A stretch of DNA of 64,000 bases from Methanospirillum sp. (lineage in GTDB: Archaea > Halobacteriota > Methanomicrobia > Methanomicrobiales > Methanospirillaceae), in the NCBI RefSeq assembly GCF_041859935.1, contig NZ_JBFLGE010000002.1; one strand, written 5' to 3'. Shown here piece by piece: positions 6,706-50,836 of this stretch. The position numbers were made by a program, and so were the translations under genes. Within the stretch, counting starts at the first letter, position 1, and every line of letters begins with the position of its first letter. The notes beneath the pieces were generated by a model. That model worked only from the letters and a program-made list of their open reading frames with translations. It ran no database searches and was not told the origin of the DNA.

Positions 6706-6785
6706 TTTTCATTAATTTATTTACTTCACTCATCTCTAAGGATAGTATATACATTTCCCGCACACTTGCACGGAGTATCTTATAC

Positions 6786-8831
6786 ATGGCTGGAATTGAA
6801 AAAAGCCTGATAAAAAGAGTAATGGTAGCAGTCATCAGCCTTTTTTTTCTGGTTCATGCTGTTTCTATAGTATGCGGAGCAGATGATATCTTCTCTTCAG
6901 GCGGAACAACCATTGTCGGTTATTATAAGGGTGATCACGTATCAGACACGATTCCCTCGTCAATGGAGGCTGGTACATCTTACCCTGTTGTCATCACATT
7001 TCAAAATAACGGGATGGTCTCCTGGGAATGGGGTGTTGAAAAGTTTGGCCTTTTATACCAGGGATTACAGTCATCAATCACCGTTGACCCGGTTTTTTCA
7101 CCAATTCCTCTGGGTGTGAAGGTTGGTACACAGGAGACCATCTCCTTCCCCTTCGTTCTTGTCCCTCCTGAAAAGCCAGGTGAATATGAGCTCAGTTTTT
7201 CAATGTCAACCAGGAAGGGCGAAGATAAGTATACGCCTTTTTCAAACGGGTTTACTAAAAGGATCATGGTAATCCCAAAAGAAGGGGTATCTTCCGGAAA
7301 TGTAGGTTCAATAATCATCAATTCAAACCCTTCAGGTGCAATGGTCAGAATGGGCAGTGAGGAAAAAGGGAATACTCCGCTCACCCTGCCTGACCTGAAT
7401 CCTGCAAAATACGAAATTACAATTCTTCACCCTGATTATGACAATAAATGGACACAGGTTCAGGTTCAGCCAGGTTCAGTCAGCAGGGTAACTGTTGATC
7501 TGACTTCTTCAGAAAAACCAACTGTATCAACAGAACAGCTCATGAGGTTCACACCGCTTGGCTGGCTGATGGATAATTTTTCTCTCATCATCATCAGTAT
7601 TATCATCCTTTTTTTTGGGTTCCAGGTCATCATGATGGACACGAAAAGAATCCCGGAGCATCACCCGTTACGACAGTATACCCGTCCATTCATTCTTCTT
7701 ACTCCTTCATCTGATGGAAAAAGCAGGTTTCATCGCGGAGACAGGAAAACCAGTAAAGGAGGTATTGCCTCTGGTGGTTCTGATACTTCCGGGATTGCTG
7801 ACGGGACTGAAGGAAGAAAACAGGGGAAAACAGCCGGTTCAGATTCTGGTGCAAGGAAAAATATCCGTGACAGGACAACAAGGCGGGAAGGAGAAGTTTT
7901 AGATAAAAAATCTATTGAAATTGAAGAAGAAGATATCGCGCCTGAAGTTCGGGATGTAGACCAGAAAACAAAAGAGATGGAAGGAATGTGGGGATTTCCC
8001 CATTCTCTTCGTGACCGGTACGAACCACTTGGTGTTGCCGGGGATGATTCATATGCCCGTATCTACAAGGTTCGAAAAAAAGAAGGAGGTGCTGTCCGTG
8101 CCCTCAAGGTTGGCCATTTAAAAGAGCTGGGGAGTGAAATTTTACAGAAAGAATCAGCAGTCTGGAGATCACTCAGACATCCAAATATTGTGCCTCTTTT
8201 CAGATATGAATTCCTGGACGACATGACTTATCTTGAAAATGAGTATCTGAACGGAATATCATACAAAGGCGTTGTTTACACCTCATTATCCGGACTTCCA
8301 AAACCTTTAAGGGAGCAGTATGCAGTGTCCCTTGTCCGTGATATCGCTGAAGGGTTGAGATATGTCCATGAGATTGGCGTCCGCCATTATCATCTGCAGA
8401 CTGGTAATATTCTTCTTACTCCCAAGCTCCGTGCCAGGGTATCAGGGTTTGCAAGAGGGAAAAATGAAATCGGATTCTCCATCAAGGATTCGGATGTCAA
8501 AGATGCAACTGCTGCGTACATTACCCCTGAACAGAAAGATGGGGAAGAATATGGTAATCCCGGGCGACGGACAGATATCTACCAGTTGGGTGTTATCTTT
8601 TATGAACTGCTAACAGGTTGTCTTCCATATAGTCCTGAGGCATTTCAAAAATCAGGTCATGAAGGAATATACGAGGATCATGCAGAAGAACTGATCCTGC
8701 CATCTGTTTTCAGAAAAAGTCTTGAAAAATATGATCCTGTCCTGATACATATGTTATCGAGAAAAAAGTCTGGTCGTTATTACCTCATTGATGAACTAAT
8801 TGTTGATCTTGATAATATCGGGAAGACCTGA
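6786..8831 (+). CDS. Receptor-like membrane protein 1: signal peptide, Ig-like module, PEGA domain, TM helix, disordered linker, kinase-like (predicted pseudokinase) domain
   Basis: 681 aa. Hydrophobic N-terminus. PEGA-like GSIIINSNPSGAMVRM..GNTPLTLPDLNPAKYEITI. TM FSLIIISIIILFFGFQVIMM. C-terminus has kinase-like landmarks VRALKV, RHPNIV, TPE, TDIYQLGVIFYELLTG, but HYH replaces HRD and SGF replaces DFG. Confidence 0.75.
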   Translation: MAGIEKSLIKRVMVAVISLFFLVHAVSIVCGADDIFSSGGTTIVGYYKGDHVSDTIPSSMEAGTSYPVVITFQNNGMVSWEWGVEKFGLLYQGLQSSITVDPVFSPIPLGVKVGTQETISFPFVLVPPEKPGEYELSFSMSTRKGEDKYTPFSNGFTKRIMVIPKEGVSSGNVGSIIINSNPSGAMVRMGSEEKGNTPLTLPDLNPAKYEITILHPDYDNKWTQVQVQPGSVSRVTVDLTSSEKPTVSTEQLMRFTPLGWLMDNFSLIIISIIILFFGFQVIMMDTKRIPEHHPLRQYTRPFILLTPSSDGKSRFHRGDRKTSKGGIASGGSDTSGIADGTEGRKQGKTAGSDSGARKNIRDRTTRREGEVLDKKSIEIEEEDIAPEVRDVDQKTKEMEGMWGFPHSLRDRYEPLGVAGDDSYARIYKVRKKEGGAVRALKVGHLKELGSEILQKESAVWRSLRHPNIVPLFRYEFLDDMTYLENEYLNGISYKGVVYTSLSGLPKPLREQYAVSLVRDIAEGLRYVHEIGVRHYHLQTGNILLTPKLRARVSGFARGKNEIGFSIKDSDVKDATAAYITPEQKDGEEYGNPGRRTDIYQLGVIFYELLTGCLPYSPEAFQKSGHEGIYEDHAEELILPSVFRKSLEKYDPVLIHMLSRKKSGRYYLIDELIVDLDNIGKT

Positions 8832-8869
8832 ACCGGTAGTATAAATAGGCTGTACACATACCTGATTCT

Positions 8870-11356
8870 TTGAGCCCTGGTCAGATGATCCCTGTCATAC
8901 TCTTGATTTTTTTAATTGTTCCGGTTGCAATGTCTCCGGTTTGTGCCCAAGAGCAGTGGATAACATATTCCGGTTTTGGTCCTTCGTACACTGGTGACAC
9001 CATCCCTGATACCCTGCTGCCAGGCCAGTCATACCCGGTTACAGTAACTTTTCGAAATACCGGTCTTGTCAGCTGGCAGGACGAGATGAGACGTATAGGT
9101 CTTCTTTATGAAGGGGATATGACAAAAGTCGTTGCCATCCCTGCTTTTGTTGAAGTAACACGCAATTTAAACATTACTCCCGGGAAACTGGCCCATTTTG
9201 GTTTTACCTTGTTGCCGGTAGGAATTCCAGGCACTTACAATCTTTCCTTTTCAGTAGTCATGCGGTCAGCAACCGGTGACCAGAAGATAACTGAAGTATT
9301 TGTAAAACGTGTCACGATTGTTCCGACTGATGGAATATCATCACCAGTGAATGGTTCAATCTTTGTTGAAAGCCAATTGCCAGACCTGAATGTATACCTT
9401 GACTCTGCTTTTAAAGGGAACGTTCCAGCAATAATTGCCGATTTAAAACCCGGTCATTACATTATTCGGGTAATTAATAATTCTTTTGAGCAAAACTGGC
9501 CAGTTGACGTGGAACGAGGCGTTATGACACGTCTTTTTATAACCGGAGAAAAAACTTCACCAGTAATCACAAAGAAAAAGGCCGGCATTATATCTGACGG
9601 GACACTTATTGGATATATTGAAGTGAATATTCCCCTGATTGCAATAATTTCTTTTATCTTCCTCTTATGTACTGGTGTTGTTATTTATGTGGTAAGAAAA
9701 CGTAAGCGTGTAATGGAAGAAAGAAAAATAGAGGCAGAAAAAGAAAGATCAAAAGATCCCGAATCTGATAAAGCAAAAAAAGAGAAAGAACTTCTTGATA
9801 AAATTCATAGTAAAAAACCATTATTTTCAGGCCTTTCCCCTTCATCCGCACCACGTCAAAATGCTGGAGGTAAAAAATTTTTAGACAAACTTACCGGTGT
9901 TCGTGCTACTGGCAGGAGATCTTCACAGGTACCAGGGGTAAAAAAGGATAAAAAACCTTTAAAAGAATCTTCCATACCCGGTTCAAAGACAGATATTCCA
10001 GAACTGGATTTAAAAGTCCGTGACCTGGACACCAGGCCCGGGTCTGCAACTGCAAGTATCGGGGTATCAAATTTATCACCTGTTCCTGTTACAATGGAAG
10101 ATAATACCATCTCTCCTGGCGGATTTGGGATTGTCCAGGTAGAACTTGATGAGCCCGCAAATGATGAACCGGAAATCATATTTTCGCTACGTTTTCTTGC
10201 GGAAGGTTCAGAGTTTTTAAAAAATATTGCAATACCATATAACCTGGGGATTGCTTTACTCGCCCGCGGAGTTATTGAAAAAGCATATGAATATTTCAGG
10301 GTATTACTGGCTGCACATCCTGACAATATCAGCGGGTTATTAAACCAGGCACATATTCTTCTTAACTGGGGCCTTGAAGAAGAAGCAATATCTTTTCTGA
10401 ATGAAGTCCTTGTTTTGGATCCTGGTAACGAAGATGCCTTAAACCTCCTTAACCATATTCAGGACAAAAGAAACCAAAAAAAGAGTAAACAGGAACCTGA
10501 ACCAGGATCAAAAATTCCTGACTATCCTGATGAATTATCTGACCGGTATACTCCAATACGCCTTTTAGGAGATGATCCTTTTGCAATTGTTGTTCTGGTC
10601 CGCAAAAATGACACCGGGGAATTACGTGCCCTGAAAATTCCCCGTACATCAGAAAAAATTAGTTCATCCCTTTATACAGAGATATCATTACTGTATCAAC
10701 TCCGTCATCCTTATGTGCTCAGGATGTTCAGGGCAGAATTTTCTCCGGTTGTCATGCTTGAACTTGAATTTGTATCAGGAGGGTGGCATGACGGAAAACA
10801 GTACACGACATTATCTGATTTACCTGTACCCCTGCCCTTTGATACCTGGTTCCCGCTGATTGAAAAAATAACAGAAGGCCTTGCCTATTTACATCGCCAG
10901 GGAGTTCGCCATTATCATCTTTCACCAAAACATATCCTGCTTGATGAACCAATGAACCCAAAAATATCAGGTCTTGTTCGCGAATCCCTTCGTGAAGCCG
11001 GGGTGAGTGGTAAAGAAGAGTTTTTTATCATGGCTCCGGAGCAGGCAGATTCAAAAAAGTATGGTAAACCTGGAAAAAAGACAGACATCTACCAGCTTGG
11101 GGCAATATGGCTCTGGCTGGTTACCGGCCAGGTTATGGACCAGGAAATAACTGACAGGGAAGACATTACTATTACAAGGGTGAATGGTGTTATTGATGAC
11201 AGTCTTGAATTGTATGCACCAATTTTTTATAAACTGACGGCCTGTTATAAAAAAGACAGATATCCATCTGCTGAGTCATTTTTGAATGATTTGAAAAGAG
11301 TCAGTCCTGGTATCTCTAAAATAAAAAGGAAAATTACTGATGGAGACGTCACATGA
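8870..11356 (+). CDS. Receptor-like membrane protein 2 (paralog): Ig-like + PEGA ectodomain, TM, K/E/S-rich linker, beta-rich and TPR-like segment, kinase-like domain
   Basis: 828 aa from TTG 8870 (ATG at 8885 is an alternative start). Same domain order as 6786..8831. Kinase-like motifs are LRALKI, HYH, SGL, APE, TDIYQLG. Confidence 0.72.
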   Translation: MSPGQMIPVILLIFLIVPVAMSPVCAQEQWITYSGFGPSYTGDTIPDTLLPGQSYPVTVTFRNTGLVSWQDEMRRIGLLYEGDMTKVVAIPAFVEVTRNLNITPGKLAHFGFTLLPVGIPGTYNLSFSVVMRSATGDQKITEVFVKRVTIVPTDGISSPVNGSIFVESQLPDLNVYLDSAFKGNVPAIIADLKPGHYIIRVINNSFEQNWPVDVERGVMTRLFITGEKTSPVITKKKAGIISDGTLIGYIEVNIPLIAIISFIFLLCTGVVIYVVRKRKRVMEERKIEAEKERSKDPESDKAKKEKELLDKIHSKKPLFSGLSPSSAPRQNAGGKKFLDKLTGVRATGRRSSQVPGVKKDKKPLKESSIPGSKTDIPELDLKVRDLDTRPGSATASIGVSNLSPVPVTMEDNTISPGGFGIVQVELDEPANDEPEIIFSLRFLAEGSEFLKNIAIPYNLGIALLARGVIEKAYEYFRVLLAAHPDNISGLLNQAHILLNWGLEEEAISFLNEVLVLDPGNEDALNLLNHIQDKRNQKKSKQEPEPGSKIPDYPDELSDRYTPIRLLGDDPFAIVVLVRKNDTGELRALKIPRTSEKISSSLYTEISLLYQLRHPYVLRMFRAEFSPVVMLELEFVSGGWHDGKQYTTLSDLPVPLPFDTWFPLIEKITEGLAYLHRQGVRHYHLSPKHILLDEPMNPKISGLVRESLREAGVSGKEEFFIMAPEQADSKKYGKPGKKTDIYQLGAIWLWLVTGQVMDQEITDREDITITRVNGVIDDSLELYAPIFYKLTACYKKDRYPSAESFLNDLKRVSPGISKIKRKITDGDVT

Positions 11357-13848
11357 ATGCCTCATTTATGATATCACTTTTCGTTCCTTTTTTCATCTTA
11401 CTTTTGGTAATTTCACCCGCATGCTGTGCTGATCTTGACATATTTTCAGGAATTTCTTTTTTAGGAGGTAAATACTCCACAAATAGTTTCCCAGATGAGA
11501 TGTATCCTGGTCAGAGTGGCCAGTACATGGTAGAATTTCTCAATACCGGAATGACAGCCTGGGAAAATGATGTTGAAAAGGTAGGGGTTGAATGTTTTGG
11601 TGATTCATCAATAATATCGGTTGAACAGAACATACAGCTGTTACCACAAGGGTCCAGGGTTCACTCCGGGAAGAGCTATCATTTTCCATTTTTCATTACT
11701 GCACATAACATTGGCCAGGCTTACCTGACTTTTGCGGTTGTCCAATTACATCCATCAGGAAAAACCACGATAATTTCCGATCCTAAAACAGTTTCAATCA
11801 ATGTAATGTCCGGTATTCAGGGTAATGAGAAAAATACCGGCAGCATCCAGGTGTCCGCAGGCCCTCTTCACCTGCCTGTTGAACTTGACGGCATACCTGT
11901 TGGCCTGACGCCACTCACCCTTCCTGACATCCCTGTCGGAGATCACCTCATTACCATCGAAGGAAAGGAAGGTGTTGTGGATAAAATGGTTGTAGTTGAA
12001 CCAGGTTCATTAAGCTCAATCACCTACAGCCCTGATAAATCAGTAGTAGTGATTGAAACCGGAGAATCACTCTTACTTGACAATTCAAACCCTCTCCTAA
12101 GACTGATATTATCAAACTTTTTTATAGCCCTTGGGCTGGTTTTTGCCTTGACAATTATAGCTGTTATCTCTATTGTTATTATCACAATAAAGATGCGAAA
12201 AGTAAAATTTACCATTTCAGAAGTTCTCCCCTGCTCGCTGCATAAAAAAAGTACCAGAGACTTTGCGATTGAAACAAGAAGAAAATCTGCTTTTGATGAA
12301 GTTATTTTTGAACCAGTTGCCGGATTATTCAATCAGGGGGAAAAGAAATTAATAAAAATACAGGTAACAAACCTGGGGATAAAAGCGATTGTTGTTCAAA
12401 AAATCCGCATTGATCCTGGAAAAAGCTGGATTATTTTAAAAGAAATTATGGATGATGATCCTGGTGACAATGAAGATATCCAGGAGATTTCCTATATCGA
12501 CAGTAATGGAAAAGAAAAATCACAAATTGTTCATCTTCAGTACCGTATAAAACCGGGACATGCTGATATCTCGTGGTTTTTCAAACGTTTTATTCTTAAA
12601 AAAGGAAAGATTGTTGCGATTGTTAATATAAAAAATAATGGTTTTTTACCCCTTAATGTCGATTCAACAGCTATACCCTCCGGAGAGGAAAAAGAGATGG
12701 AACTGGAACTTGACGTTCCTGACAATGATGCTGCATCGGTTTATAAAAAATTAGAGATTTTTGCAGGCAGTCTTAACCCTTTCACATTATCTGTGAAAAT
12801 ACCCTACAACATGGGAATTTTTTTATTTTTTTCAAAAAAGTATGCAAAATCACTGAAATGGTTTAACCAGCAGATAACCCGGGACAATGGAGATCCCACT
12901 ATAAACCGGTACCGTGACCTTATTGTAAAAAAGTTAAATCTTTCTTCAAAATCACAAAAACCGGATTTGACAAGTTTGGATGAAGAGTTACCTGGTTTTG
13001 TGGAAAAAAGAGATCAGATGGCGGATGTTTCAACCCGGGTTTCATCCTCTCCCCAGGTACCCGGGTTTCCTGATTCTTTATTGCCTGTATATAAACCGTC
13101 TGAACTGATATCATCAGACCGGCTTGGACTCATGTTCAGTGCTGTAAGAGCTTCAGATAATGAAGAAGTTGCAATCCGGGTTCTTGATTTAGGGTTGATG
13201 CCTCCATCCCAGATAGAATTGCAGATACATACCTGGAGGGCGTTAAAACACCCGAATATTCTGCAAATTAAGTTTTGGGAACGTGATCCTGTCTACTATA
13301 TTGAATTTGATCTCCCGTCCGGTGCAGTGCAATATAAAAGAAAAATTTTTACACTTGCAGATCTTAAAGTGCCCATACCTTCCCGTGCTGCATTGTATAT
13401 TACCAGGGGACTTGCAAAAGGCATTTATTATATCCATCAGCAGGGAGTCAGGCATTATCTGCTTGAACCATCTACTATTTTTCTGGACAAAGAGTTACAT
13501 CCAAAAATTTCAGGGTTTGACATGTCTGCTCTTATCCTGTCTAAAATCCCCGCGGATTGTTGGATTATTGCTCCAGAGCAGCGAAACCCTGAGAAATATG
13601 GAAATCCCGGGAAAAAGACTGACATCTACCAGGCAGGGGCAATTTTTAATTATCTTCTTTCCGGGCAGGTGCCTGGAAGTACTGAAAAAAAAAGTATACT
13701 TCCTTCTCACTTTCGTGATGAGTATTCCATTTATGATCCAGTAGTTCAAAAGTCCCTGCATATTGATAAAAACGAACGTTACGGAGATATTAGTGAAATG
13801 ATCCAGGAACTGGACAGTCTGCTGTCTTCTTCCTCAAAAAAAGGATAA
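11353..13848 (+). CDS. Receptor-like membrane protein 3 (paralog): Ig-like + PEGA ectodomain, TM, beta-rich repeats, TPR-like segment, kinase-like domain
   Basis: 831 aa; ATGA overlap with the previous gene. Motifs are VAIRVL, HYL, SGF, APE, TDIYQAG. Confidence 0.72.
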   Translation: MNASFMISLFVPFFILLLVISPACCADLDIFSGISFLGGKYSTNSFPDEMYPGQSGQYMVEFLNTGMTAWENDVEKVGVECFGDSSIISVEQNIQLLPQGSRVHSGKSYHFPFFITAHNIGQAYLTFAVVQLHPSGKTTIISDPKTVSINVMSGIQGNEKNTGSIQVSAGPLHLPVELDGIPVGLTPLTLPDIPVGDHLITIEGKEGVVDKMVVVEPGSLSSITYSPDKSVVVIETGESLLLDNSNPLLRLILSNFFIALGLVFALTIIAVISIVIITIKMRKVKFTISEVLPCSLHKKSTRDFAIETRRKSAFDEVIFEPVAGLFNQGEKKLIKIQVTNLGIKAIVVQKIRIDPGKSWIILKEIMDDDPGDNEDIQEISYIDSNGKEKSQIVHLQYRIKPGHADISWFFKRFILKKGKIVAIVNIKNNGFLPLNVDSTAIPSGEEKEMELELDVPDNDAASVYKKLEIFAGSLNPFTLSVKIPYNMGIFLFFSKKYAKSLKWFNQQITRDNGDPTINRYRDLIVKKLNLSSKSQKPDLTSLDEELPGFVEKRDQMADVSTRVSSSPQVPGFPDSLLPVYKPSELISSDRLGLMFSAVRASDNEEVAIRVLDLGLMPPSQIELQIHTWRALKHPNILQIKFWERDPVYYIEFDLPSGAVQYKRKIFTLADLKVPIPSRAALYITRGLAKGIYYIHQQGVRHYLLEPSTIFLDKELHPKISGFDMSALILSKIPADCWIIAPEQRNPEKYGNPGKKTDIYQAGAIFNYLLSGQVPGSTEKKSILPSHFRDEYSIYDPVVQKSLHIDKNERYGDISEMIQELDSLLSSSSKKG

Positions 13849-13849
13849 C

Positions 13850-15037
13850 ATGCCAGATAAACCCGTTTTATTAACAAGTTATTTCCTGTTTATGATGGTC
13901 CTGTCTCTTTTTTCTCCCCTGGTAAATGCAGTACCTGCTGAATCTGAAAAACTTCTTGCTGAGGGTGTTGATGCATATAATTCAGGTGACATGGAAAATG
14001 CACTCCGGTTATTTGAAACGCTCATAAATATGGATCCATCCTGGCCATATGGATGGCTCTGGAAAGGGACGGTATTAGCCGACCTGGGTAAACAAAAAAA
14101 GGCTGAAGACGCTTTTAGAACTGGAAGATGTCTTATCAGTCCGGATACCTGTGACGACTTAACCGAAGATGATGTTTCAGATTCTTATGATAAAACCAGG
14201 ACAAATTCTCATTCTGGTCTGGTTATCCCGCCTGTAATTGTCAACAGGGCAGTGGATCTGACGGAAGACACCATTAATCATCAACGAGTCTTTTCTCATT
14301 TTGATAGTCCTCCAAAAGACAATTTTGGATATGTTTTACAGCCACAGTCTGATTCATACCAGAAATCATTTGAACAGGAAGGAGATAAGCACATGAAAGC
14401 AGGAATGTATGATAAGGCGCTTCATTCATACCTGTTGGCCGAAGAAATTAATCCGGAAAATCCGGATATCTCCAGAAAAGTCGGGGACACATTTAAGGAA
14501 CTTGGCGATCTCAACTCCGCACTGGACGCCTGGAATCGTTCTGTTCAAAATGAATCAAATCAGAAAATATCTGATAATCTTAGGAAAAAAAGGTCTGATG
14601 CTTTTTCAGCCCAGAACATGCCAGAGCAAGCCATCCAGGAGTTTGAAAAGATAAAAACATCTGATTTTGATCCTGATATAGAATTTCAAAAAGGAGAGTT
14701 ATATTCCCGGTTACAGGATTATTCACTTGCAGAACAATCTTTTCAGGACTTCCTTTTATTAAATCCCGGAAATATTGATGCATCCCTAGGTCTTGCAAAT
14801 GCCAGGCTATGCCAGGGGAAGATTATTAGTACAGAAGAAATCCTTGATTCCCTCCCTCTCTTCTCTCTAAATCCTGATCAGGCAGACCTTCTGGAGAAAT
14901 TAAAAAAAGAGATAAAAAACCATCCTTCAGGTAAGACAGATGATATATCTGTCATTTTCAGCCATCCCGAATTATATATTCTGATTGGTATCGGTGTCTT
15001 TGGAATATTTTATTTCAGGGATAAAATTTTCAGGTAA
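13850..15037 (+). CDS. TPR-repeat protein with N-terminal signal sequence and C-terminal TM anchor
   Basis: 395 aa; starts 2 nt after the previous stop. Hydrophobic N-terminus ending ..VNAVPAE; several TPR-like A/L/Y/G/P patterns; C-terminal ELYILIGIGVFGIFYF helix. Confidence 0.65.
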   Translation: MPDKPVLLTSYFLFMMVLSLFSPLVNAVPAESEKLLAEGVDAYNSGDMENALRLFETLINMDPSWPYGWLWKGTVLADLGKQKKAEDAFRTGRCLISPDTCDDLTEDDVSDSYDKTRTNSHSGLVIPPVIVNRAVDLTEDTINHQRVFSHFDSPPKDNFGYVLQPQSDSYQKSFEQEGDKHMKAGMYDKALHSYLLAEEINPENPDISRKVGDTFKELGDLNSALDAWNRSVQNESNQKISDNLRKKRSDAFSAQNMPEQAIQEFEKIKTSDFDPDIEFQKGELYSRLQDYSLAEQSFQDFLLLNPGNIDASLGLANARLCQGKIISTEEILDSLPLFSLNPDQADLLEKLKKEIKNHPSGKTDDISVIFSHPELYILIGIGVFGIFYFRDKIFR

Positions 15038-15069: not shown

Positions 15070-16461
15070 TCATTTATTCCTTTCTTTTCTGGCAAGAGTG
15101 AAATCATCATTAATAAGAACTCCCATGTTCCTGCATAATTCACGCATTTTTGGAGGAAGCGTCTGCCACCTCCACAATCCCCAGCTGATGTATTCATCAG
15201 GCATCTGCTTTTTTTCCGCCCATTTTCTAAGAAATGCATCCCATCGTGTAGTAATGCCTGGATGTGTCTTTCGTATGGAATCATATTCGCTCTCAAGCAT
15301 GGCAGGACAGAGATAACATCCGACCCGTTCGACCCCCTGTTCGTACATTGGATTCGTTGGAATTTTTCTCCACCAGAGATAAAGAAACACTTCAAATGCC
15401 CGCCAGTTCCTTATTGGAGAGACATTCAGCTGGAGTGGATTGGCCGGGTTCTGACTTGTTACATTAAGGCCTGCACGGTTCCATGACTCGTACCATCTGT
15501 TGCCCTGTATTGTTACGCACGGACCGATACCGTCAAGATACATCTTCAATGGATCTAATTTGAGGAGGGTGCAACACCACCGGTTATCCTTTCCAGGAGG
15601 CCCGCTTTTTTCCACCATCTGCCAGAAATTATTCTCTCCTTTCCTGATTATCTCAACCCCCTGTTCTTTGATAAACTGGATAGTTTCAGGAAATTCAAGT
15701 CCTGTGTCGATGAAAAACGCCTTTTCTACCCCGGCTTTTCTTGCCAGGTGCAAAACTACTGTACTGTCTTTTCCGCCTGAAAAGGAGACGTTTACTAAAG
15801 GCCGGTCTTTCATGTGGCGTTTAATGGTCCGGACAGCATTTCGCTCAAGGTTTTTCAGATGGTATGCATTTTTGGCAATGACTGTCTCCCAGTCAGGATT
15901 AGGATAAACCTTTGGTAAAACCGGGAGAAGTTCCTTTATCCTTATATATCCATCCTTAACGGTTGCTGTCCCATACTTTCCATTAGCAGTGACAATGACC
16001 TGGCCATCAGGGACCGGCTCTTTTAGTGGAAAGCGTTTTCCCCCGATTCTTCCCTTTTCAGCCTTTAGATCGATATGAGTACCAAGGTCGATGACCCCTT
16101 TTGATATATGCTGGACAAGAAATGGCAGGGCCTCAGGTGCAATTTCAAGAGAATAAGTTTTTTTCACCGGATCAAAAGTGAACCAGCCAAATCGCTGACC
16201 ATTGATGATAATGAGTTCTGCTCTATCGTATCCACCGGTCTTATTTAACAGCATTACTTTCGGAACAGGAATATCGCCGTATTGGGATGTTAATATCTGT
16301 ATGATACGTTCCCTGTCCAAAGAGAGAGCAGGCCTGATATCATAAGGTTGAAGCAGGGCGATGGTTTTTGCCTCATTGCCGCAGCTGCATGTCTGTCCTA
16401 TAAGGGGAACATTGCAGTGTTCACACCAGTAAAGTATTTTTTTCACAGCCGGCTCACGCAT
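15070..16461 (-). CDS. PAPS-reductase/PP-loop ATPase family protein with N-terminal Zn ribbon and PUA-like region
   Basis: 463 aa; CEHCNVPL..CSCG ribbon; SFSGGKDSTVVLHL PP-loop; C-terminal GCYLCP motif. Confidence 0.65.
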   Translation of the reverse strand: MREPAVKKILYWCEHCNVPLIGQTCSCGNEAKTIALLQPYDIRPALSLDRERIIQILTSQYGDIPVPKVMLLNKTGGYDRAELIIINGQRFGWFTFDPVKKTYSLEIAPEALPFLVQHISKGVIDLGTHIDLKAEKGRIGGKRFPLKEPVPDGQVIVTANGKYGTATVKDGYIRIKELLPVLPKVYPNPDWETVIAKNAYHLKNLERNAVRTIKRHMKDRPLVNVSFSGGKDSTVVLHLARKAGVEKAFFIDTGLEFPETIQFIKEQGVEIIRKGENNFWQMVEKSGPPGKDNRWCCTLLKLDPLKMYLDGIGPCVTIQGNRWYESWNRAGLNVTSQNPANPLQLNVSPIRNWRAFEVFLYLWWRKIPTNPMYEQGVERVGCYLCPAMLESEYDSIRKTHPGITTRWDAFLRKWAEKKQMPDEYISWGLWRWQTLPPKMRELCRNMGVLINDDFTLARKERNK

Positions 16462-35970: not shown

Positions 35971-36693
35971 TTATACTCCGGTAATGATCGGAGAAATATA
36001 TGCTGAAAATGTCACAGGGCTTTGAACCATATTTCTCTGGTTAATCTCTTCAAGTAACCGGTAAATCTCTTCCAGCTTGTCAGGCTGCGATATCCTTTCA
36101 TTTTCATACCTGGCAACTGCTGTTTCAAGGGCTCCTTTTGCTTCGGGGAATCGGTTCAAATTAAAAAGGACTCTTCCTTTTCCTGCATAAAAAGCCCAGC
36201 TGGACGATGTCTCTTTTGCAAATGAGATGGATTTCATATAGGCATCAAGAGCAGACAGGTACTTTTTCTGAGTTTCCAGAACAATTCCAAGTCCGTACCA
36301 TGCATCTGATGATTCAGGTTTAAGCTCGATTGCAGCCTGGAATGCTTTGTATGCAGCATGGTAATTTCCCCCTTCAAAGGCAGCAAATCCATTTGCAAGA
36401 TTATTTTCAAAATCTTCTGAAGGAATTACAGGTGTCGGGGTTGGAGTGACTCCACGGTCAAGAACAGTGCTCATGAGATTTTGATCTATCTGGGCAAGTA
36501 ACCATTCCGGTGCGGAAAAGAGAGAACCATGAGACCACCCGCCTTCATAAGGGATCATTCCTGATGGAACAAGTTCAGGATCAAATGCATAACCATTGTA
36601 AAAAATTTTTTCTGCGGTGTCAGCAACTGTAGGCGTTCCAGGAATAATTACAATTATTGCAAGGATGCAGAGCAATGATGTTAGACGAGACAT
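35971..36693 (-). CDS. Secreted/anchored TPR-repeat protein
   Basis: 240 aa; signal-like N-terminus LLCILAIIVIIPG; TPR-like repeats (YHAAYKAFQAAIELKPESSDAWYGLG..). Confidence 0.6.
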   Translation of the reverse strand: MSRLTSLLCILAIIVIIPGTPTVADTAEKIFYNGYAFDPELVPSGMIPYEGGWSHGSLFSAPEWLLAQIDQNLMSTVLDRGVTPTPTPVIPSEDFENNLANGFAAFEGGNYHAAYKAFQAAIELKPESSDAWYGLGIVLETQKKYLSALDAYMKSISFAKETSSSWAFYAGKGRVLFNLNRFPEAKGALETAVARYENERISQPDKLEEIYRLLEEINQRNMVQSPVTFSAYISPIITGV

Positions 36694-36704
36694 AGTTAAT
36701 TGAT

Positions 36705-36723
36705 CTCATATGTGAAATAAATA
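36705..36723 (-). promoter_or_regulatory. Promoter module: TATA TATTTATTT directly followed by palindrome-like CACATATGAG
   Basis: Seen directly on the minus strand; the ATG of the TPR gene is 11 nt after the motif (leaderless geometry). Confidence 0.5.
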
Positions 36724-36888
36724 CTTTGTTACTGATAATTCATCATATCCTTTTGATGAAAATAGGACTTAAAGGAATGAATAATGTCTGACTTCTAATT
36801 TTAACAAAAACCAGGAAATAGCACATAAAAAACAGATAGCCTGACTTTAATGATGGATCATAAAGGGATCTGCCAAAAACCTGAAGTT

Positions 36889-36922
36889 AAAAAAAGAAAA
36901 GTAATTTTTCCCGGTTACCGGG
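36889..36922 (-). terminator. mcr operon terminator: hairpin enclosing the mcrA stop codon, then a T-rich tract
   Basis: Minus strand CCCGG-TAA-CCGGG followed by AAAAATTACTTTTCTTTTTTT. Confidence 0.55.
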
Positions 36923-38618
36923 CTGGCATGAGGAGTGTTCTCTCTCCACATGCAGCGAACTCGCGGATTGCACCCTTTGCAAACTCTTTCCTTGGCTCTG
37001 CAAAGTCGAAGGGCAGGGATGGGTCTGCGAAAGTGATCTTGATCATCGGGGACAGACAGAAACCATCGTTCCTGGTGTAGTGAGATGAACCGACAATAGC
37101 GGCGTATTCTCCCTGGTGTCCCACGTTCATTGCGTAGTTCGGGTAGTTTGGACCACGGTATTCACCGATACAACCCTCGTCAGGTCTGACAGAGAGTGAG
37201 TTGGTTGAACCACACTGATCCTGCAGGTCGTATCCGAAGAATCCGAGACGTGACCAGCCTTCCTTGTGCATGAGCATTGAGAGATACCATCCGTTCAGAC
37301 CAGCATTGGAGTTGGCGGTTGCAATACCGACTGAAAGACCGGATGCTGCTGCGATAACTCCTGCACGCTGTGAACCACCAAAGTGGTCTTCCATAAGGGT
37401 TGGGAACTGCTCGTACTGCTCCATTGCATTGAGGGTGACCTCTCCGGCGATGTCGTTGACAACATCCTGGGTTGGTTTGACCTTGTCTGCCGGGTTACAT
37501 GCCTTCCAGTCAACTTTGTACTTGTCCTTGATGTAGTCCATACCGTAGTAGGTGTACTCATCAAGGATGTTGTCGGTATATGCTGCGGTTGCATACTGGG
37601 TAAATCCGACACCACCAGACATGTATGAACCAAGCCAGATCTGGTCAAAGAGCATACAACCAGCACCTACAACCTCAAGGGATGCCTTTGCCGGGTCGTT
37701 TGGATACTTACGGTTTGCCTGGATCATGTCAGAGAAGTGTCCGAACATGATACCACCAGGTTCATTCGGACCACGTGCACGACGGGCCGGGAGGTGGTTT
37801 GCCATCTGGATGACACCAGCATGCTTTGCTGCAAAGGACAGGTCTGCTACTGCTGCTTCACCGGCACACATGCGGTATGCAGTGATGAAGGACATTCCTA
37901 TCTGCATGGCTGACCACCGGGAGGTAGTTCCACCATCACAAGTACGGGAGACGATGGTTGGGATGTGGATTGCCTGCCAGAGTGACTTGCCTACAGCTGC
38001 GTTCAGCTGTTCTGCCTGCTTTGCCGGGAAGAGCTTGTTGACATCAAGGACAAACTGCTTCTCAAGCTGGTCTGCAAGTTCAGAGTCTCCGGTAAAGACC
38101 TTTACATAACAGTCATCTACAACACTTGGGTGGGTCTCAACCATGTGTTCCTGAACAACTGCACCACCTGGCATTGCGTGGTTTAAGATGTGCAGGTATT
38201 CGTTGATGGTTTCAGGGGTGATTTCCTTGCCAAGACGCTTCTGAAGAGTGCTGTGAGCTAAGTCCATGTTGACGATGATTGTACGACGGATATCATCCCA
38301 CATCTGCTGCATTGCAGGGTTGTTGACAAAGTGCAGGTCGTCACCCTCTACAAAAGTTCCGGTTCCGGAGACTTCGTAGGTCATGAGCTGACGCTGACCC
38401 ATTGGCAGACCACCAAGGTGGCAGCGGTTTGGATCGTACATGGAAATTCCACGGCGGAGCTCTACCTTCTTGGATGCCTCCATGAACTCTTTCTTTCTTG
38501 CAGACTGGTTAAGACCACCAAATTTGTAAAATTCAGTCTTGGTTTCTGCAACATCACCCTCAAATTTAGTCTTCAGTGCTTTGAGGAAAAGTTTCTGGGC
38601 TCTCTCGATTTTTGCCAT
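36915..38618 (-). CDS. mcrA: Methyl-coenzyme M reductase alpha subunit
   Basis: 567 aa; hallmark segments [40 protein letters not shown]-type, [15 protein letters not shown]. Confidence 0.98.
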
Positions 38619-38631
38619 TTTTGTAACCTCC

Positions 38632-39390
38632 TTACTCCACCGGCATGAATCCGTATTTTGTTCTCAGAGAGTGGATCCGCTGGATGTATTCAATGTATTC
38701 TCCGTCACTGCGGTAGGCAGTGCCAACAAGGGAGTGGAACATTGTAGTGTTTGCTTTCAGCCAGGCATCATCCATTGGTTTGCCGACATCGACTTTCTTG
38801 TCAAGTGGAGTTCCAATCTGATTCTTTACGTACTTAACTGTGCCACCTTCGAGGATACACCGCTGAAGCATGTCAAACATCATTCCATCTTCTGCAAGAC
38901 GGAGTGAGTGACCATGCACGGTTGCTCCACGGATACCGACACGTGCCGGGTCGAAGAGGTTGGTGTTGATAAGGTCTGCGGATATTTTTTCAAGGTCACG
39001 CTCACGGCATTCAACAATCTGACGGCCGGACAGAGTTCCCGGGTCAATTCCACGGTACCTGTACATTTCTGTATATGTTCTCTGGTATGGCTGGGATGGT
39101 GCGTTATATACCGAGTCTGCGAACTGGACGTACCTGACACGGTCTCCAGCTTTTGCTCCATCGGTAGGGGTGACGATCTTTCTTATTGGACAGTCCGGTT
39201 CACCCTGTTCTGCGAGTGGCGGGTGTGCAGTCGGGTATGCCTGACCTGGTGCACGGTGTCCAAGAATAAGGACAATGTCTTCATCGGTGACATTGCGAAT
39301 TTTTTCAAGCTTTACGTTTGGGTTCATCTGTTTGCGCCGGTTTTCGGCGACAGCAGACTGGCCCGGACCATATTGTGGAGTGTATGCCAT
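38632..39390 (-). CDS. mcrG: Methyl-coenzyme M reductase gamma subunit
   Basis: 252 aa; [11 protein letters not shown]-terminus and operon position. Confidence 0.96.
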
Positions 39391-39393
39391 TCT

Positions 39394-40029
39394 TTATCTC
39401 TCCAAATCTGAAGTTTTCATAAGTCTCATGACTTCGTGAATGACCTCGCTGATCTTTTCGCGAGATGGGGTCTGACCCCTGGTGATGCCACTAATAATCG
39501 CCATTACTGTCCCTTTTGTCCGGACATTCTCTTCAGTTGGCATCACAAGCGCTGTCTTTATTCCTTCTTTTGCAAAATCCTCGTAATCTACTGGAGCCTG
39601 GCAGACCACAATCGCAGGTATGTCACAGTCTTTTAAGATGGATCTGACTTTGTGAACGATATGTGATCTGACATTTCCATGATGTAGTACCGCAATTTTA
39701 TGGCGGTTAATTTGGATTATTTCCTTCTCGTTCAGGCCAAAATATGCTCCCAGCACATGACCGGCACTCTTGGGGGCATCAGGAGGAATCCCGGAGCCCG
39801 CATTGAGAATCATGGTGCTGATACTATATTCGACCCCCTGTGCCCTCAGGGCAGACGTGATATCACAGACTGGTTTTGTGACATGCCGGCGACCGGGGGA
39901 CATCCCGACTATAATGACATCAGGATATCGGCATTCGGAGATAGTCCCCCTTTGGGCAAGGGCCCCTCCTTTTCCCATACCCGCACTTTCGCGGCAGTCT
40001 ACTATCTGTGTTACCCGTCCGATTGGCAT
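39394..40029 (-). CDS. mcrC: Methyl-coenzyme M reductase operon protein C
   Basis: 211 aa; position between mcrD and mcrG; McrC-like sequence. Confidence 0.9.
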   Translation of the reverse strand: MPIGRVTQIVDCRESAGMGKGGALAQRGTISECRYPDVIIVGMSPGRRHVTKPVCDITSALRAQGVEYSISTMILNAGSGIPPDAPKSAGHVLGAYFGLNEKEIIQINRHKIAVLHHGNVRSHIVHKVRSILKDCDIPAIVVCQAPVDYEDFAKEGIKTALVMPTEENVRTKGTVMAIISGITRGQTPSREKISEVIHEVMRLMKTSDLER

Positions 40030-40499
40030 TATTTATGTCCCTGGATGAGTGTCGGTCCGGTTTTATTCTTGGGATCAACCAGACCCAGCATGATTTCGTT
40101 TGCATTCGGGCCGTACTTTGCATAATCAACCTGTGTTGGTGTTGCTCTCATAAACTTTCCTTCCTTTACGGAATATGAAAAGTTCGTGAAAATTTCTTTA
40201 CAGGCTTCTTCGATCTGCTGTACAATATCCCGTGTTTCCAGTTCAAGAAGGATTGTTCCTACCTGCACCCTGAGCTCCACATCAGTTTCCCCTACCTGAA
40301 TAATTGCTCTCCCTGTATGGGGGTTGGGCAGGCCCCGGGCAGGGCCATAGGGGACGGTCTGGGGTATACTCGGGCCATTTATGACGATTCTTCGGACACC
40401 GGGTATGACCGCCAGTTTATTGAGGATTTTCTCAACAGTTTCTGGTTTTAAGAGACGCTCGGTGACGATCCTGCATTGCGGAAATTCAGCTTCAGTCAT
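40029..40499 (-). CDS. mcrD: Methyl-coenzyme M reductase operon protein D
   Basis: 156 aa; position after mcrB; McrD-like sequence. Confidence 0.9.
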   Translation of the reverse strand: MTEAEFPQCRIVTERLLKPETVEKILNKLAVIPGVRRIVINGPSIPQTVPYGPARGLPNPHTGRAIIQVGETDVELRVQVGTILLELETRDIVQQIEEACKEIFTNFSYSVKEGKFMRATPTQVDYAKYGPNANEIMLGLVDPKNKTGPTLIQGHK

Positions 40500-40516
40500 T
40501 GCGTGAAACCTTTGGA

Positions 40517-41824
40517 CTATACTCCCTGTGCGATGTGCTGGATCGGCTGGGCGAACTCTGGGATCTTACCAAAGGTGTCTTGGTAAACCTTGGATGTATT
40601 CTCTGGTGAGAACATCTGGGTTCCTGCGTCAAGAGCACAGGCTGCTACTATACAGGGCAGTCCAACACCGGCTGCGTGACGGGTAACGACGTGGTTACCG
40701 TTGAACACACCGGGACCTCCGCCACCGTAGATAGAGTGGCTGAAGAATGAGAATCCGACTGCGACACCCATTACACGACCATAGTCACAACCTGGAAGAC
40801 CTGTCTCGTGCTCAAGAAGGTCGTTGAAGTAGAGCAGGGTTGAGGATACTGCCTGTGCAAACCGGCCTGCACCACAGTTTACCATGGTTGCTGCCAATGT
40901 TCCGGCTGCTGTGTAAGCATTCCAGAGCATTGGGTCCTTGGTCTCGTAGAAGGTGTATCCGGATGGTCCCTTCTTGCCTGCGGTGATGATCTTGTCCTCA
41001 ATTGCTTTCTCGACAAGGGACTGGACGACGGTTCCTACAGTTCCGGTTGTACCGTTCTTTTTAACAAGGTCGTATACAAGGTTATTTGCATTCAGACCCT
41101 GGTAGGCGTAAAGGAGCAGCTGTGCACGCTCGAATGGTCCGATTGCCATTCCCATTTCAAACTCTCCAGCCTGTTCAAAGGTTGCGGAGAGTGCAGCACC
41201 TTGCATTGCATTCCTGTTGGTGATCATCACAGCATGGTTTGCAGGAATGTTACGAAGTGCATATCCAAGACCTTCGTTGTTCTGTGGAATGGAAAGGATA
41301 GATGCACATGCAGAACCTCCCATGTCCATGGTCTGTGGGTAAGTACCCCAGAATGCTGCCTTTACAGTTGAACCGTCAAACATGCCGACGTTGAACTGGT
41401 CGATGACAGAGTAGGTTGCTGCTGCAGCAACTGATGTAAGTGCTGCATCGTAGGTTGCTGCTGCCTCTATACGTGCAGTTGGCACGGTACAAAGCAGAAG
41501 CTTGCCGCCACCGAATTCCTTGATTTCGGTGTCGTCACCTTCGGTAACCTGGAGCATCTTGAACATCTTTTCCTTGATTGCACCTGCGTTTCCAACAAGG
41601 TCAAGGTTAAGTTCACGTCCTGGGATCTGGTTCTTTCCAGCCTTACCTGTCTTGAGGAATTCCTGTGCTCCTCCAAGGTTGACTGCTACGGTTCTCTTTG
41701 TAAGCCCGATCATCTTCTTGATGCCGGGGTTAGTAAGCGGGCTGATTTTTTCTAAGGCAACACCACTTTTCAGCAGCTTGCCCTGGTCGTCATAGAGATC
41801 AATTGTGTCGGAAAATTTTGCCAT
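40517..41824 (-). CDS. mcrB: Methyl-coenzyme M reductase beta subunit
   Basis: 435 aa; MAKFSDTIDLYDD N-terminus typical of McrB; GGAGG RBS upstream. Confidence 0.97.
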   Translation of the reverse strand: MAKFSDTIDLYDDQGKLLKSGVALEKISPLTNPGIKKMIGLTKRTVAVNLGGAQEFLKTGKAGKNQIPGRELNLDLVGNAGAIKEKMFKMLQVTEGDDTEIKEFGGGKLLLCTVPTARIEAAATYDAALTSVAAAATYSVIDQFNVGMFDGSTVKAAFWGTYPQTMDMGGSACASILSIPQNNEGLGYALRNIPANHAVMITNRNAMQGAALSATFEQAGEFEMGMAIGPFERAQLLLYAYQGLNANNLVYDLVKKNGTTGTVGTVVQSLVEKAIEDKIITAGKKGPSGYTFYETKDPMLWNAYTAAGTLAATMVNCGAGRFAQAVSSTLLYFNDLLEHETGLPGCDYGRVMGVAVGFSFFSHSIYGGGGPGVFNGNHVVTRHAAGVGLPCIVAACALDAGTQMFSPENTSKVYQDTFGKIPEFAQPIQHIAQGV

Positions 41825-42517: not shown

Positions 42518-43114
42518 ATGACGCAATATGGAAAAAATGTTATCGGGAAGGGTACCCGCATTTTTGATCCAGTAATACTTGGTTTTCCTCCACGGTATCA
42601 TTTGAACAAAGAATATTATGATGGTTGTTCAGTTGGCAGTAATGGAGTACTCAGACCTGGGACAACAATCTATGCTGATGTAAAGATTGGAGATTTTTTC
42701 TCATCAGGGCATAATGTGATGATCAGGGAAAAAACCACAATAGGAGATCATGTATCTCTTGGTACGAATGTGATCATTGAAGGGAACAGTACTCTTGGTG
42801 ATCATGTAAATCTTCAGAGCCTGGTATATATTCCGACAAACACAGTTTTGGGTTCTCATGTATTTATCGGTCCGAATTCTGTACTGACAAATGACAAATA
42901 TCCACCAAACGGGGGTGCAGATCTGCATGGGCCAATTCTCGAAGATTACGTCTCTATTGGGGCAAATGCCACGATTCTGCCAGGTGTTATCATTGGAATC
43001 GGCTCCCTTGTGGCAGCTGGTTCTGTGGTTACGAAAGATGTTCCTCCTGGGACTCTTGCCATTGGATCTCCGGCACGAATGAAGACACTTCCCGTGGGAG
43101 CGAAACGAAAATGA
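42518..43114 (+). CDS. Hexapeptide-repeat (left-handed beta-helix) N-acetyltransferase, WbpD-like
   Basis: 198 aa; repeated [LIV]G-x4 hexapeptides; NDKYPP motif; gene context. Confidence 0.8.
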
Positions 43115-44187
43115 TACCAGTTGCACATCCTGTTTTTGGCGATCAGGAAATTGAAGCTGTCTCCAGAATCATGCGATCAGGTATGATAGCCAGCGGGGAA
43201 GAAGTCTCTTTGTTTGAAAAGGAATTTGCAGATTATTGTGGCACAAAAGAGGCAATAGCGACAAACAACGGAACAACTGCCCTTCATGCCGGACTGATGG
43301 CATGCGGGATTCTCCCCGGTGATGAAGTAATCGTACCTTCGTTTACCTTTTTTGCCACTGCTTCCTCGGTCAGCATGTGCGGTGCAAAACCTGTGATGGT
43401 TGATGTATGTGAAGGTTCTTTTGGTATATCTCCGAGTGCCATTCTTGAATCAATAACTCCCAGAACGAAAGCAGTAATCGGTGTTCATCTCTTTGGTCAA
43501 CCCTGTGATATCTCTGCAATTATGGAGATATGTGAAGATCACCATCTGATGTTTATTGAGGATTGTGCCCAGGCACATGGTGCACTCTATAATGGAAAAA
43601 AGGTGGGATCATTTGGATCAATTGGATGTTTTTCTTTTTACCCAACGAAAAACATGACAACCGGAGAAGGAGGAATGATAACAACCAATGATCCGGGTAT
43701 TGCTGATCATGCCCGAAGGCTTATCAACCATGGTCAGGGAAAAAAATATCTCCATACAGAAATCGGGTTTAACTATCGACTTACTAATATTGGAGCGGCA
43801 ATAGGTAGAGTACAGCTCCGGAAAATCGATGCGATGAATGAAGCACGTAATAAAAATGCGATGTATTTTTCTGAGCATATACGAAACACGAAAATTTCAC
43901 TTCCTGTAACTCCCGATGGGTGTAGTCATGTTTATCATCAGTATGTCATACGAGTAAAAGATGGGAAACGGGATCAATTGACAACCTGGCTTTCAGAACA
44001 GGGTATCGGAACTGCGATTCATTACCCTATTCCGGTAAATGAACAACCGGTTTATTCAACCGTTCCAAACCCTCCCTGTCCAGTATCTGCAAGACTTGCC
44101 CAGGAAGTGCTGAGTCTGCCAGTCTATCCGGGTTTGACAGATAAGGAATTGGAGTATATTTGTAATACTCTGAATAGGTGGTCCTGA
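43111..44187 (+). CDS. DegT/DnrJ/EryC1/StrS-family PLP aminotransferase, WbpE-like
   Basis: 358 aa; [14 protein letters not shown] lysine context typical of the family. Confidence 0.88.
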
Positions 44188-50724: not shown

Positions 50725-50836
50725 TGATTATTTAATAATTTGATGTAATTTTACTTATTTTGTCTTATTATCTACAACCAGATAACCGCTCTGATTGTGG
50801 GTATTATTTTCCCGTTTCAGACTAATATATCTTGAA

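Follow-up and report, generated by a model that had tools for sequence, protein, structure and literature searches.

We describe a cluster of four genes, here called g1 to g4, which follow each other on the + strand at positions 6786-15037 of a 64-kb stretch of DNA from Methanospirillum sp. (the window). The first three encode paralogous membrane proteins whose predicted extracellular part combines an immunoglobulin (Ig)-like and a PEGA domain, and whose cytoplasmic part keeps the fold of Hanks-type protein kinases without the residues of catalysis; the fourth encodes a membrane-anchored protein with tetratricopeptide repeats (TPR). We suppose that g1-g3 are type I membrane pseudokinases working as a non-catalytic transmembrane scaffold or sensor between the envelope and the cytoplasm, a reading to which we give somewhat better than even chances (about 0.55). 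The four open reading frames (ORFs) had been reported in an earlier note on this DNA and were found again at the same positions (Table 1).

By profile matches as by modelled structure, g1-g3 belong to the protein kinase superfamily and carry a Hanks-type fold. The Pkinase profile PF00069 matches all three above its gathering score of 31.7 bits (79.3 bits for g1, 61.1 for g2 and 56.2 for g3). The kinase domain matches the PknB sequence at E 5.6e-20 and BRI1, among the PDB sequence matches, at E 3e-16, while a Foldseek search with the g2 model returned S. aureus Stk1 and M. tuberculosis PknB as best structures (template modelling scores 0.72-0.76). The FP(D/H)SL..RY.P motif, to which the earlier note had drawn attention, is real but not special: PknB-type kinase domains commonly begin in this way at their N-terminus, and the motif aligns to PSHLSDRYEL of PknB, the class sharing with g1-g3 the pattern (L/S)xDRYE(L/P) at this place.

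The fold that had been proposed for these domains thus stands, but catalytic competence does not. In an alignment of 13 kinase domains of the family with 33 canonical kinases drawn from the search results, three positions invariant in the canonical set (33/33) are lost: the Asp of HRD is replaced by His (11), Leu (1) or Lys (1), the Lys of the catalytic loop by Gln, Ser or Glu, and the Asp of DFG by Gly in 13/13 members. HRD thereby reads HYH in g1 (residues 534-536, nt 8385-8393) and in g2, where DFG has become GFA (residues 554-556, nt 8445-8453) and GLV, respectively. The most degraded domain is that of g3, with VAIR for VAIK, Gln for the Glu of helix alphaC, HYL for HRD and GFD for DFG. 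The GxGxxG pattern of the Gly-rich loop is also absent, GFGGMS of PknB being aligned to GDDSYA in g1, LGDDPF in g2 and SSDRLG in g3; a G(D/S)D sequence is conserved at this loop in g1 orthologs. On the other side, the APE Glu, the subdomain-IX Asp and the His preceding HRD, conserved in canonical kinases, are retained in 13/13 family members. Members of the g1 and g2 clades still possess the beta3 Lys and alphaC Glu, although their presence is not in itself evidence of nucleotide binding, whereas g3 of the window has Arg and Gln instead; g1 keeps K441 and E456 together with the APE Glu 582 and the subdomain-IX Asp 597. We class the three domains as pseudokinases because the kinase fold is kept while the catalytic residues are not, and the loss of the catalytic and metal-binding Asp is, from the aligned sequences, family-wide.

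The degenerate motifs are themselves conserved. RHYH(L/I)Q and SG(F/Y)ARG recur in about 35 g1 orthologs, VA(I/V)R, HYL and GFD in g3 orthologs, SGLV is conserved as well, and the Arg at the beta3 position is conserved among g3 orthologs of the hungatei clade. None of the full-architecture representatives retrieved by an exhaustive search of 1.84 billion representative proteins with the ectodomain profile possesses HRD. Averaged over g1 orthologs, identity is 0.68 in the pseudokinase, 0.69 in the Ig-like domain, 0.65 in PEGA and 0.38 in the linker, and reaches 0.77 in the motif at the pseudokinase start. To judge from these comparisons, the pseudokinase is as conserved as the ectodomain and is under purifying selection, not decaying. 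With the catalytic Asp and the DFG Asp absent, the unit by itself is no receptor of phospho-signalling.

The three proteins are true paralogs, far above chance: their pairwise phmmer E-values range from 1e-55 to 8e-81, and they are 29-33% identical over the full length with collinear domains. Each begins with a hydrophobic signal whose end is AxA-like, and has one internal transmembrane segment with a K/R-rich C-terminal flank. They are thus predicted to be single-pass type I proteins with Ig/PEGA outside and the kinase fold inside, and this topology reproduces the layout of a type I receptor, that is signal peptide, ectodomain, one transmembrane helix and a cytoplasmic C-terminal kinase fold. 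The transmembrane segment of g1 is 65% conserved among orthologs. It is followed by a disordered linker rich in S/G/K/R/E/D (residues 286-400), such a linker being almost absent from g3. The architecture outlined in the earlier note (signal, NBR1-type Ig-like domain, PEGA, transmembrane helix, low-complexity linker, Hanks-type kinase fold) is accordingly recovered, kinase and PEGA/Ig folds being detected and the two halves predicted on opposite sides of the membrane.

A Cys ends the hydrophobic region of the signal in all of g1-g3 (S-x-x-C-x-A), namely Cys30 in g1 (6873-6875), Cys25 in g2 (~8942-8944) and Cys24-Cys25 in g3 (~11422-11427). It lies at -3 or -2 of the AxA-like site and is not found in every g3 ortholog, that of locus L007 being without it. 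This residue could belong to a cleavage site of AxA type or to a lipobox-like site of lipid attachment.

The ectodomain is made of two modules. By its profile and its modelled beta-sandwich of ~70 residues, the second one is a PEGA domain, as had been proposed. PF08308 (cut-off 20.8 bits) matches g1 at 46.2 bits, and up to 49 bits across scans, while g2 (19.7 bits) and g3 (19.2 bits) fall just under the cut-off; 43 of 46 family members match at E<0.01, the best at 6.8e-14. The first module is probably a divergent member of the NBR1-type Ig-like clan. Profile N_BRCA1_IG (PF16158) gives 17.5-21.8 bits in g1-g3, under its 28-bit cut-off, with E 0.006 to 0.0003 in g1; 15 of 46 family members match at E<0.01, and two orthologs carry a precomputed PF16158 match. 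The guess of an NBR1-type domain, sub-threshold as its Pfam match is, nevertheless appears reasonable in view of the proteins that the ectodomain profile retrieves: besides thousands of tandem PEGA arrays, it matches proteins with 6-8 N_BRCA1_IG repeats at E ~1e-118 to 1e-62, and 8 N_BRCA1_IG stretches in protein P0113 (E 8e-71). AlphaFold2 models the g1 ectodomain as two beta-sandwiches (predicted local distance difference test score, pLDDT, 90.8), for which Foldseek against the PDB returned only generic Ig-like sandwiches (complement MG domains, Caf1M/FaeE chaperones, Fsx1).

The additional beta-rich and TPR-like segments that had been noticed in g2 and g3 are real as well. Residues 385-828 of g2 are modelled by AlphaFold2 as one compact unit (pLDDT 85.4, predicted template modelling score 0.81) in which a beta-sandwich (385-455) and five TPR-like paired helices (459-539) precede the kinase fold. 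TPR profile matches remain sub-threshold in g2, at ~21 bits, and many g2 orthologs match TPR_19; no TPR match to Pfam profiles was obtained with g3. We observed that the cytoplasmic beta-rich segments share with the extracellular Ig-like domain a strand motif x-V-x-V-x-N-x-G, present in one unit in g2 (385-455; 10022-10234) and seemingly in two in g3 (residues ~320-365 and 410-455; ~12310-12717). It is unusual for a receptor to carry Ig-like sandwiches in its cytoplasmic part.

Concerning g4, the succession of signal peptide, TPR and transmembrane anchor has been confirmed: TPR_2 (68 bits), TPR_1 (54) and TPR_16 (51) match above their cut-offs, and the signal ends in a conserved VxA site. Because g4 combines a signal peptide with a C-terminal anchor that has a basic cytoplasmic tail, its TPR domain is predicted to lie outside the membrane. 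The role of cytoplasmic scaffold once proposed for this protein is consequently not borne out. The cytoplasmic TPR-like module is the one within g2.

How widespread is this family? About 40 g1 orthologs (50-99% identity) were collected, all of Methanospirillum or Methanomicrobiales sources. Homologs of g1, g2 and g4 came only from Methanospirillum or unclassified Methanomicrobiales, and g4 orthologs only from Methanospirillum. Patterns specific to the family, run on 185,579 species genomes, detected 14 loci, all in Methanospirillum-type genomes. As far as sequence searches tell, the family is confined, where found, to Methanospirillum and one deeper related lineage. The number of genes varies between loci. 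Genomes close to M. hungatei and M. purgamenti show g1-g2-g3-g4. M. lacunae (L015) has g1, g2 and a third paralog of 741 aa, without g4; locus L010 contains g1 and g2 only. The deeper lineage (L017/L018, with SecY 75% identical) has only a g1-like and a g2-like gene, 36% and 28% identical. The family members of all these loci still bear degraded kinase motifs. Thus g1 is followed by g2 in 13/13 loci where both sides are visible, the lineage with 75% SecY identity included, whereas g3 is absent from L010 and L017, and g4 from L010, L015 and L017; in the hungatei clade g4 comes after g3 in 7/7 loci. Because the pair is present in 13/13 loci, these comparisons give the short and long genes g1+g2 as the ancestral obligate unit, to which g3 and g4 are later lineage-specific additions. 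The conserved unit is this core and not the set of four genes.

A ribosomal-protein/secY-adk-EMC3-cmk block precedes the cluster on its upstream side in all loci. Compared with hungatei-clade loci such as L003 and L004, the window proteins are 77% (g1), 66-70% (g2), ~63% (g3) and 53-56% (g4) identical, against 85-96% for neighbouring genes. By this measure g1-g4 evolve much faster than their housekeeping neighbours. The distance from cmk to g1 is 80 bp in the window (6706-6785), while relatives have one or two minus-strand genes there (segments compared: L003 3443-4875, L007 8484-9865, L015 8601-10000 and L017 6310-10000). These encode PaaK-like proteins of AMP-binding/phenylacetate-CoA-ligase type, of ~450-476 aa, and an AI-2E transporter in M. 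lacunae and L017. The window organism either lost this segment or never gained it. A functional or operon link to secY was considered and rejected: the proximity is not an operon relationship, because minus-strand genes part g1 from cmk in relatives.

As stated in the earlier note, g2 and g3 overlap by ATGA, an overlap kept in L003, L004, L005, L007, L011 and L012. The junction of g3 and g4 is tight as well: the stop codon of g3 is followed by a single base and then by the ATG of g4. Most loci of the hungatei clade have a gap of 1-6 nt at this place, and short overlaps were called in L011 and L014. Given the conserved overlap and the short gap, g2-g3-g4 look translationally coupled. The start of g2 needs a correction: since TTG 8870 is not kept in six orthologous loci whereas the ATG equivalent to 8885 is, and since the matching database protein (P0076, 823 aa) begins at this ATG, the real g2 is probably the 823-aa protein starting at 8885.

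The 38 nt between g1 and g2 are more conserved than their surroundings, being 90% identical over six loci against ~76% in flanking coding DNA. This spacer contains an invariant AACCGGTAG.ATAAATAGGCTGTAC core, a TATAAATA box and a TATA-like box ~40 nt upstream of the conserved g2 ATG. Its RNA folds no better than shuffles (z = +0.93), and because of this lack of an RNA-fold signal we read it as a DNA-level element, probably an internal archaeal promoter with B recognition element and TATA box (BRE/TATA) for g2-g3-g4. The single co-translated unit initially proposed consequently seems to hold for g2-g3-g4 but not for g1, which the promoter-like spacer sets apart. The region upstream of g1 is a putative promoter of its own, TTTATACATTTCC and GGAG recurring upstream of g1 orthologs in L003, L004, L007 and L008. 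A scan for bacterial sigma-70 promoters and terminators found no enrichment over shuffles, with a bacterial consensus that is not applicable to an archaeon.

These properties can be compared to those of several known systems. In sequence as in structure, the closest relatives of the g1-g3 cytoplasmic domain are kinases of the PknB/Stk1/StkP class. Both groups are single-pass proteins joining an extracellular beta-rich sensor to a cytoplasmic kinase fold. However, PknB-type proteins are active and have the kinase at the N-terminus followed by the transmembrane segment and a PASTA sensor, whereas in g1-g3 an Ig/PEGA ectodomain comes first and the kinase fold, deprived of its Asp residues, comes last. 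The 34 nearest database kinases confirm this difference: the transmembrane segment is located after the kinase domain in 22, among which the PEGA-bearing P0042, and the order ectodomain-transmembrane-kinase occurs in 0.

From a functional point of view, the best analogy is with bacterial transmembrane pseudokinases, EssB/YukC of the type VIIb secretion system, MviN/ActPs3, ActPs2 and GLW, which are non-catalytic scaffolds or dimerisation modules (PMC12599244). Like g1-g3, they anchor in the membrane a kinase fold whose catalytic motifs and Gly-loop are degraded. Nevertheless, their transmembrane segment is C-terminal to the pseudokinase, the reverse of the order in g1-g3 (PMC12599244), and EssB/YukC/MviN-type families are bacterial, lack an Ig/PEGA ectodomain and belong to type VII secretion or peptidoglycan contexts that are absent at g1-g4. 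No specific sequence relationship of g1-g3 to these families was detected, and the RHYH(L/I)Q / SG(F/Y)ARG signature of the g1 family is not among the families of the 2025 review PMC12599244. Membership of the EssB/YukC or MviN types was rejected, the domain order being inverted and the neighbours being secY-adk-EMC3-cmk and a gene resembling 3'-phosphoadenosine 5'-phosphosulfate (PAPS) reductase.

The type I layout itself, down to the Ig-like ectodomain and the juxtamembrane linker, is that of plant receptor-like kinases (RLKs, e.g. BRI1) and of animal receptors of HER3/ROR/PTK7 type, and eukaryotic receptor sets share with g1-g3 the theme of paralogs including dead co-receptor members. Yet all of g1-g3 are dead, with no active partner in the set, and NBR1-type Ig and PEGA are modules of prokaryotic surface proteins, unlike those of eukaryotic receptors. 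As bacterial PknB is a nearer relative of the kinase domain than the RLKs are, the eukaryote-like layout is most simply explained by convergence. The PEGA domain was originally described from cell-surface proteins of archaea and bacteria (PMC2447325). Surface proteins with PEGA or N_BRCA1_IG employ the same modules, but in long tandem arrays and without a cytoplasmic signalling fold; the combination of a single Ig, a single PEGA, a transmembrane helix and a pseudokinase was met in only ~14 representative clusters, all family-sized. The earlier note knew of no characterised archaeal counterpart, and our literature searches (archaeal pseudokinases, PEGA with kinase, Methanospirillum with PEGA) indeed gave no paper on this system or on an archaeal pseudokinase family.

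Hardly any work exists on signalling of the Ser/Thr kinase type in methanogens, and the locus offers a compact, well-delimited example of archaeal receptor pseudokinases, built from modules (kinase fold, PEGA, Ig, TPR) that are all known, in a topology the reverse of that found in bacterial Hanks kinases and in the bacterial transmembrane pseudokinases described so far. RefSeq names the window proteins "protein kinase [Methanospirillum sp.]", an annotation misleading for censuses of archaeal phospho-signalling. The g1-g4 proteins are also a testable candidate link to the Methanospirillum envelope. This envelope, composed of a surface layer (S-layer), end plugs and an amyloid sheath, has been resolved by cryo-electron tomography, while its biogenesis and its coordination with division are unexplained; in M. 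hungatei the space from membrane to S-layer is a uniform 12 nm (PMC11641113). We estimate that two tandem beta-sandwiches with a 20-residue stalk have the right order of length to approach the S-layer.

We favour the scaffold or sensor reading because EssB/YukC and MviN work non-catalytically (PMC12599244) and because of this 12-nm spacing (PMC11641113). By analogy with receptor pseudokinases and PknB-type kinases, g1, g2 and g3 would hetero-oligomerise via their transmembrane and pseudokinase domains. The ectodomains would face the pseudo-periplasm and contact an envelope component, and the pseudokinase and TPR modules would dock cytoplasmic partners or act allosterically, without phosphotransferase activity. 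A kinase encoded outside the cluster may phosphorylate the S/T-rich linkers. Where present, g4 would be an accessory of the outer face, its strongly conserved transmembrane segment and tail probably touching the receptors within the membrane. A more ambitious version, in which Methanospirillaceae independently evolved a eukaryote-like type I receptor consisting of pseudokinases only, and in which a g1/g2(/g3) hetero-complex with g4 outside spans the 12-nm pseudo-periplasm and reports or organises the state of S-layer, end plug or sheath to the growth/division machinery by allostery or scaffolding, seems to us distinctly unlikely when taken as a whole.

Several points weigh against a non-catalytic scaffold or sensor. 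Signal peptides and transmembrane segments were called with a simple script based on hydropathy and positive-inside charge, not with a dedicated predictor. No ligand can be named for the ectodomain, because only generic Ig-like folds match it. The supplements of the M. hungatei envelope proteomics (PMC11641113) hold no kinase, TPR or PEGA entries, and our search for transcript, proteome or interaction evidence for the g1-g4 proteins found none. Finally, the Lys, the Glu and the strictly conserved His of g1 and g2 may allow nucleotide binding or an unorthodox activity.

Among other explanations, the one which survives best makes the three proteins adaptors or substrates in the phospho-relay of a separate active Hanks kinase: as for MviN, linker or activation loop would be phosphorylated and an effector recruited, the pseudokinase being the docking surface. 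There is a precedent in the M. tuberculosis pseudokinase MviN, part of a PknB-dependent module (PMC12599244), and the long, disordered, S/T/G/K/R-rich linkers would suit such a role, as would the preserved length of the activation loop and the APE motif. But active kinases, FHA proteins and PP2C phosphatases are all missing from the operon, a phmmer comparison of g1-g4 with every ORF of the window revealed no kinase-like paralog beyond the three, and the linker is both poorly conserved (0.38) and almost missing from g3. We hold such a relay to be unlikely, if somewhat less so than the complete receptor scenario above.

The proteins could alternatively be purely structural tethers, with Ig/PEGA anchoring or spacing S-layer, plug or sheath and the pseudokinase as an inert relic. 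PEGA and NBR1-type Ig overwhelmingly occur as repeats in large surface proteins, and the family is limited to a genus whose multilayer envelope is unusual (PMC11641113). A relic is however not expected to be conserved, yet the pseudokinase (0.68) and its start motif (0.77) are as constrained as the ectodomain (0.65-0.69), and g2 and g3 have even gained extra folded cytoplasmic modules. Nor are the proteins reported in the envelope proteomics supplements. We find this explanation more doubtful than the relay and than the complete receptor scenario.

Still lower we place the idea that g1-g3 are unorthodox active kinases or nucleotide-dependent enzymes, in which His at the HRD position would be the base and the Lys-Glu pair would bind a nucleotide although the DFG Asp is missing, in the way of CASK, which is Mg-independent, or of repurposed pseudokinases such as SelO. 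The His of HYH is strictly conserved in g1 and g2 orthologs, where the beta3 Lys and alphaC Glu are kept too, and most g1 orthologs have Asn or Asp at the HRDxxxxN position. Against such an activity, both Asp of the catalytic site have gone from all members, the Lys of the catalytic loop is Q, S or E, and two acidic residues in the Gly-rich loop (G-D-D-S) would repel phosphates; besides, g3 has lost Lys, Glu and His also, and is conserved all the same. An anti-virus defence or virus-receptor module of kinase type (PD-T4-6, Mad6 of MADS, PglW of BREX) is the least likely reading and a very improbable one, for although PADLOC PD-T4-6 and mad6 and NCBIfam MADS6 match the kinase domain at E 1e-14 to 1e-29, the scores (91.7 bits against a cut-off of 460 for MADS6, 34.9 against 990 for PglW) reflect a generic kinase domain only and led us to reject membership of a defence system, kinases of these types need catalytic activity, g4 has no PADLOC match and the partner genes of such systems are missing, the ectodomain shows no hypervariability, and every relative has the cluster at the same syntenic core-genome position by the ribosomal/secY operon, not in a variable island.

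Table 1. Positions of the g1-g4 genes, of their parts and of other features in the window
Feature	Position	Strand	Description
Putative g1 promoter region	6744-6774	+	TATA-like box TATATACATTTCCC; GGAG Shine-Dalgarno-like motif 11 nt before ATG
g1, short receptor-like pseudokinase	6786-8831	+	681 aa; signal peptide 1-31, NBR1-type Ig ~45-165, PEGA 172-242, transmembrane 263-285, linker 286-400, pseudokinase 401-681
g1 ectodomain	6918-7511	+	NBR1-type Ig-like beta-sandwich 6918-7280, then PEGA beta-sandwich 7299-7511
g1 transmembrane helix	7572-7640	+	FSLIIISIIILFFGFQVIM; hydropathy 2.68; basic C-terminal flank; predicted N-out/C-in
g1 pseudokinase domain	7986-8828	+	From PknB alignment and column mapping against the 33 canonical kinases
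g1-g2 intergenic element	8832-8869	+	38 nt, conserved spacer (ACCGGTAGTATAAATAGGCTGTAC...)
g2, long receptor-like pseudokinase	8870-11356	+	828 aa from TTG 8870; more likely 823 aa from ATG 8885; signal peptide, Ig-like, PEGA (~9353-9559), transmembrane (9638-9700), K/E/S-rich linker
g2 cytoplasmic modules	10022-11353	+	Beta-sandwich 10022-10234, TPR-like helices 10244-10486, pseudokinase 10529-11353 (HYH, GLV)
g3, third paralog	11353-13848	+	831 aa; signal peptide, Ig-like, PEGA, transmembrane (12124-12192), cytoplasmic beta-rich and helical region, pseudokinase (13075-13845)
g4, membrane-anchored TPR protein, predicted extracytoplasmic	13850-15037	+	395 aa; signal peptide with VNA|V-type cleavage (13850-13930), TPR blocks ~aa 30-95 and 170-350, C-terminal transmembrane (14951-15016), basic tail YFRDKIFR
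PAPS-reductase-domain gene	15070-16461	minus	463 aa
Methyl-coenzyme M reductase operon	35971-41824	minus	mcrA 36915-38618, mcrB 40517-41824, smaller ORFs between
Low-GC block	~42500-64000		36-41% GC; sugar and surface-glycan biosynthesis genes
DegT/DnrJ aminotransferase	43111-44187
UDP-glucose/GDP-mannose-dehydrogenase family, first gene	45095-46531
GumK-like glucuronosyltransferase	50795-51955
UDP-glucose/GDP-mannose-dehydrogenase family, second gene	54704-56140
Asn-synthase-like amidotransferase	61789-63849	minus

The rest of the window calls for a few remarks. No Rfam family reached its gathering score across the 64 kb, and ARAGORN found no tRNA or tmRNA genes there. With its methyl-coenzyme M reductase operon, the organism is confirmed as a methanogen. 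The last third of the window is poorer in GC than the remainder (42-49% elsewhere) and, with its genes for sugars and surface glycans, may be a variable or horizontally acquired island of envelope glycosylation. Downstream of g4, the counterparts of the PAPS-reductase-domain gene in two relatives (L003 14368-17025, L007 19616-22246) are open frames of up to ~880 aa, which may correspond to an N-terminal fusion or extension, or to an artefact of longest-ORF calling.

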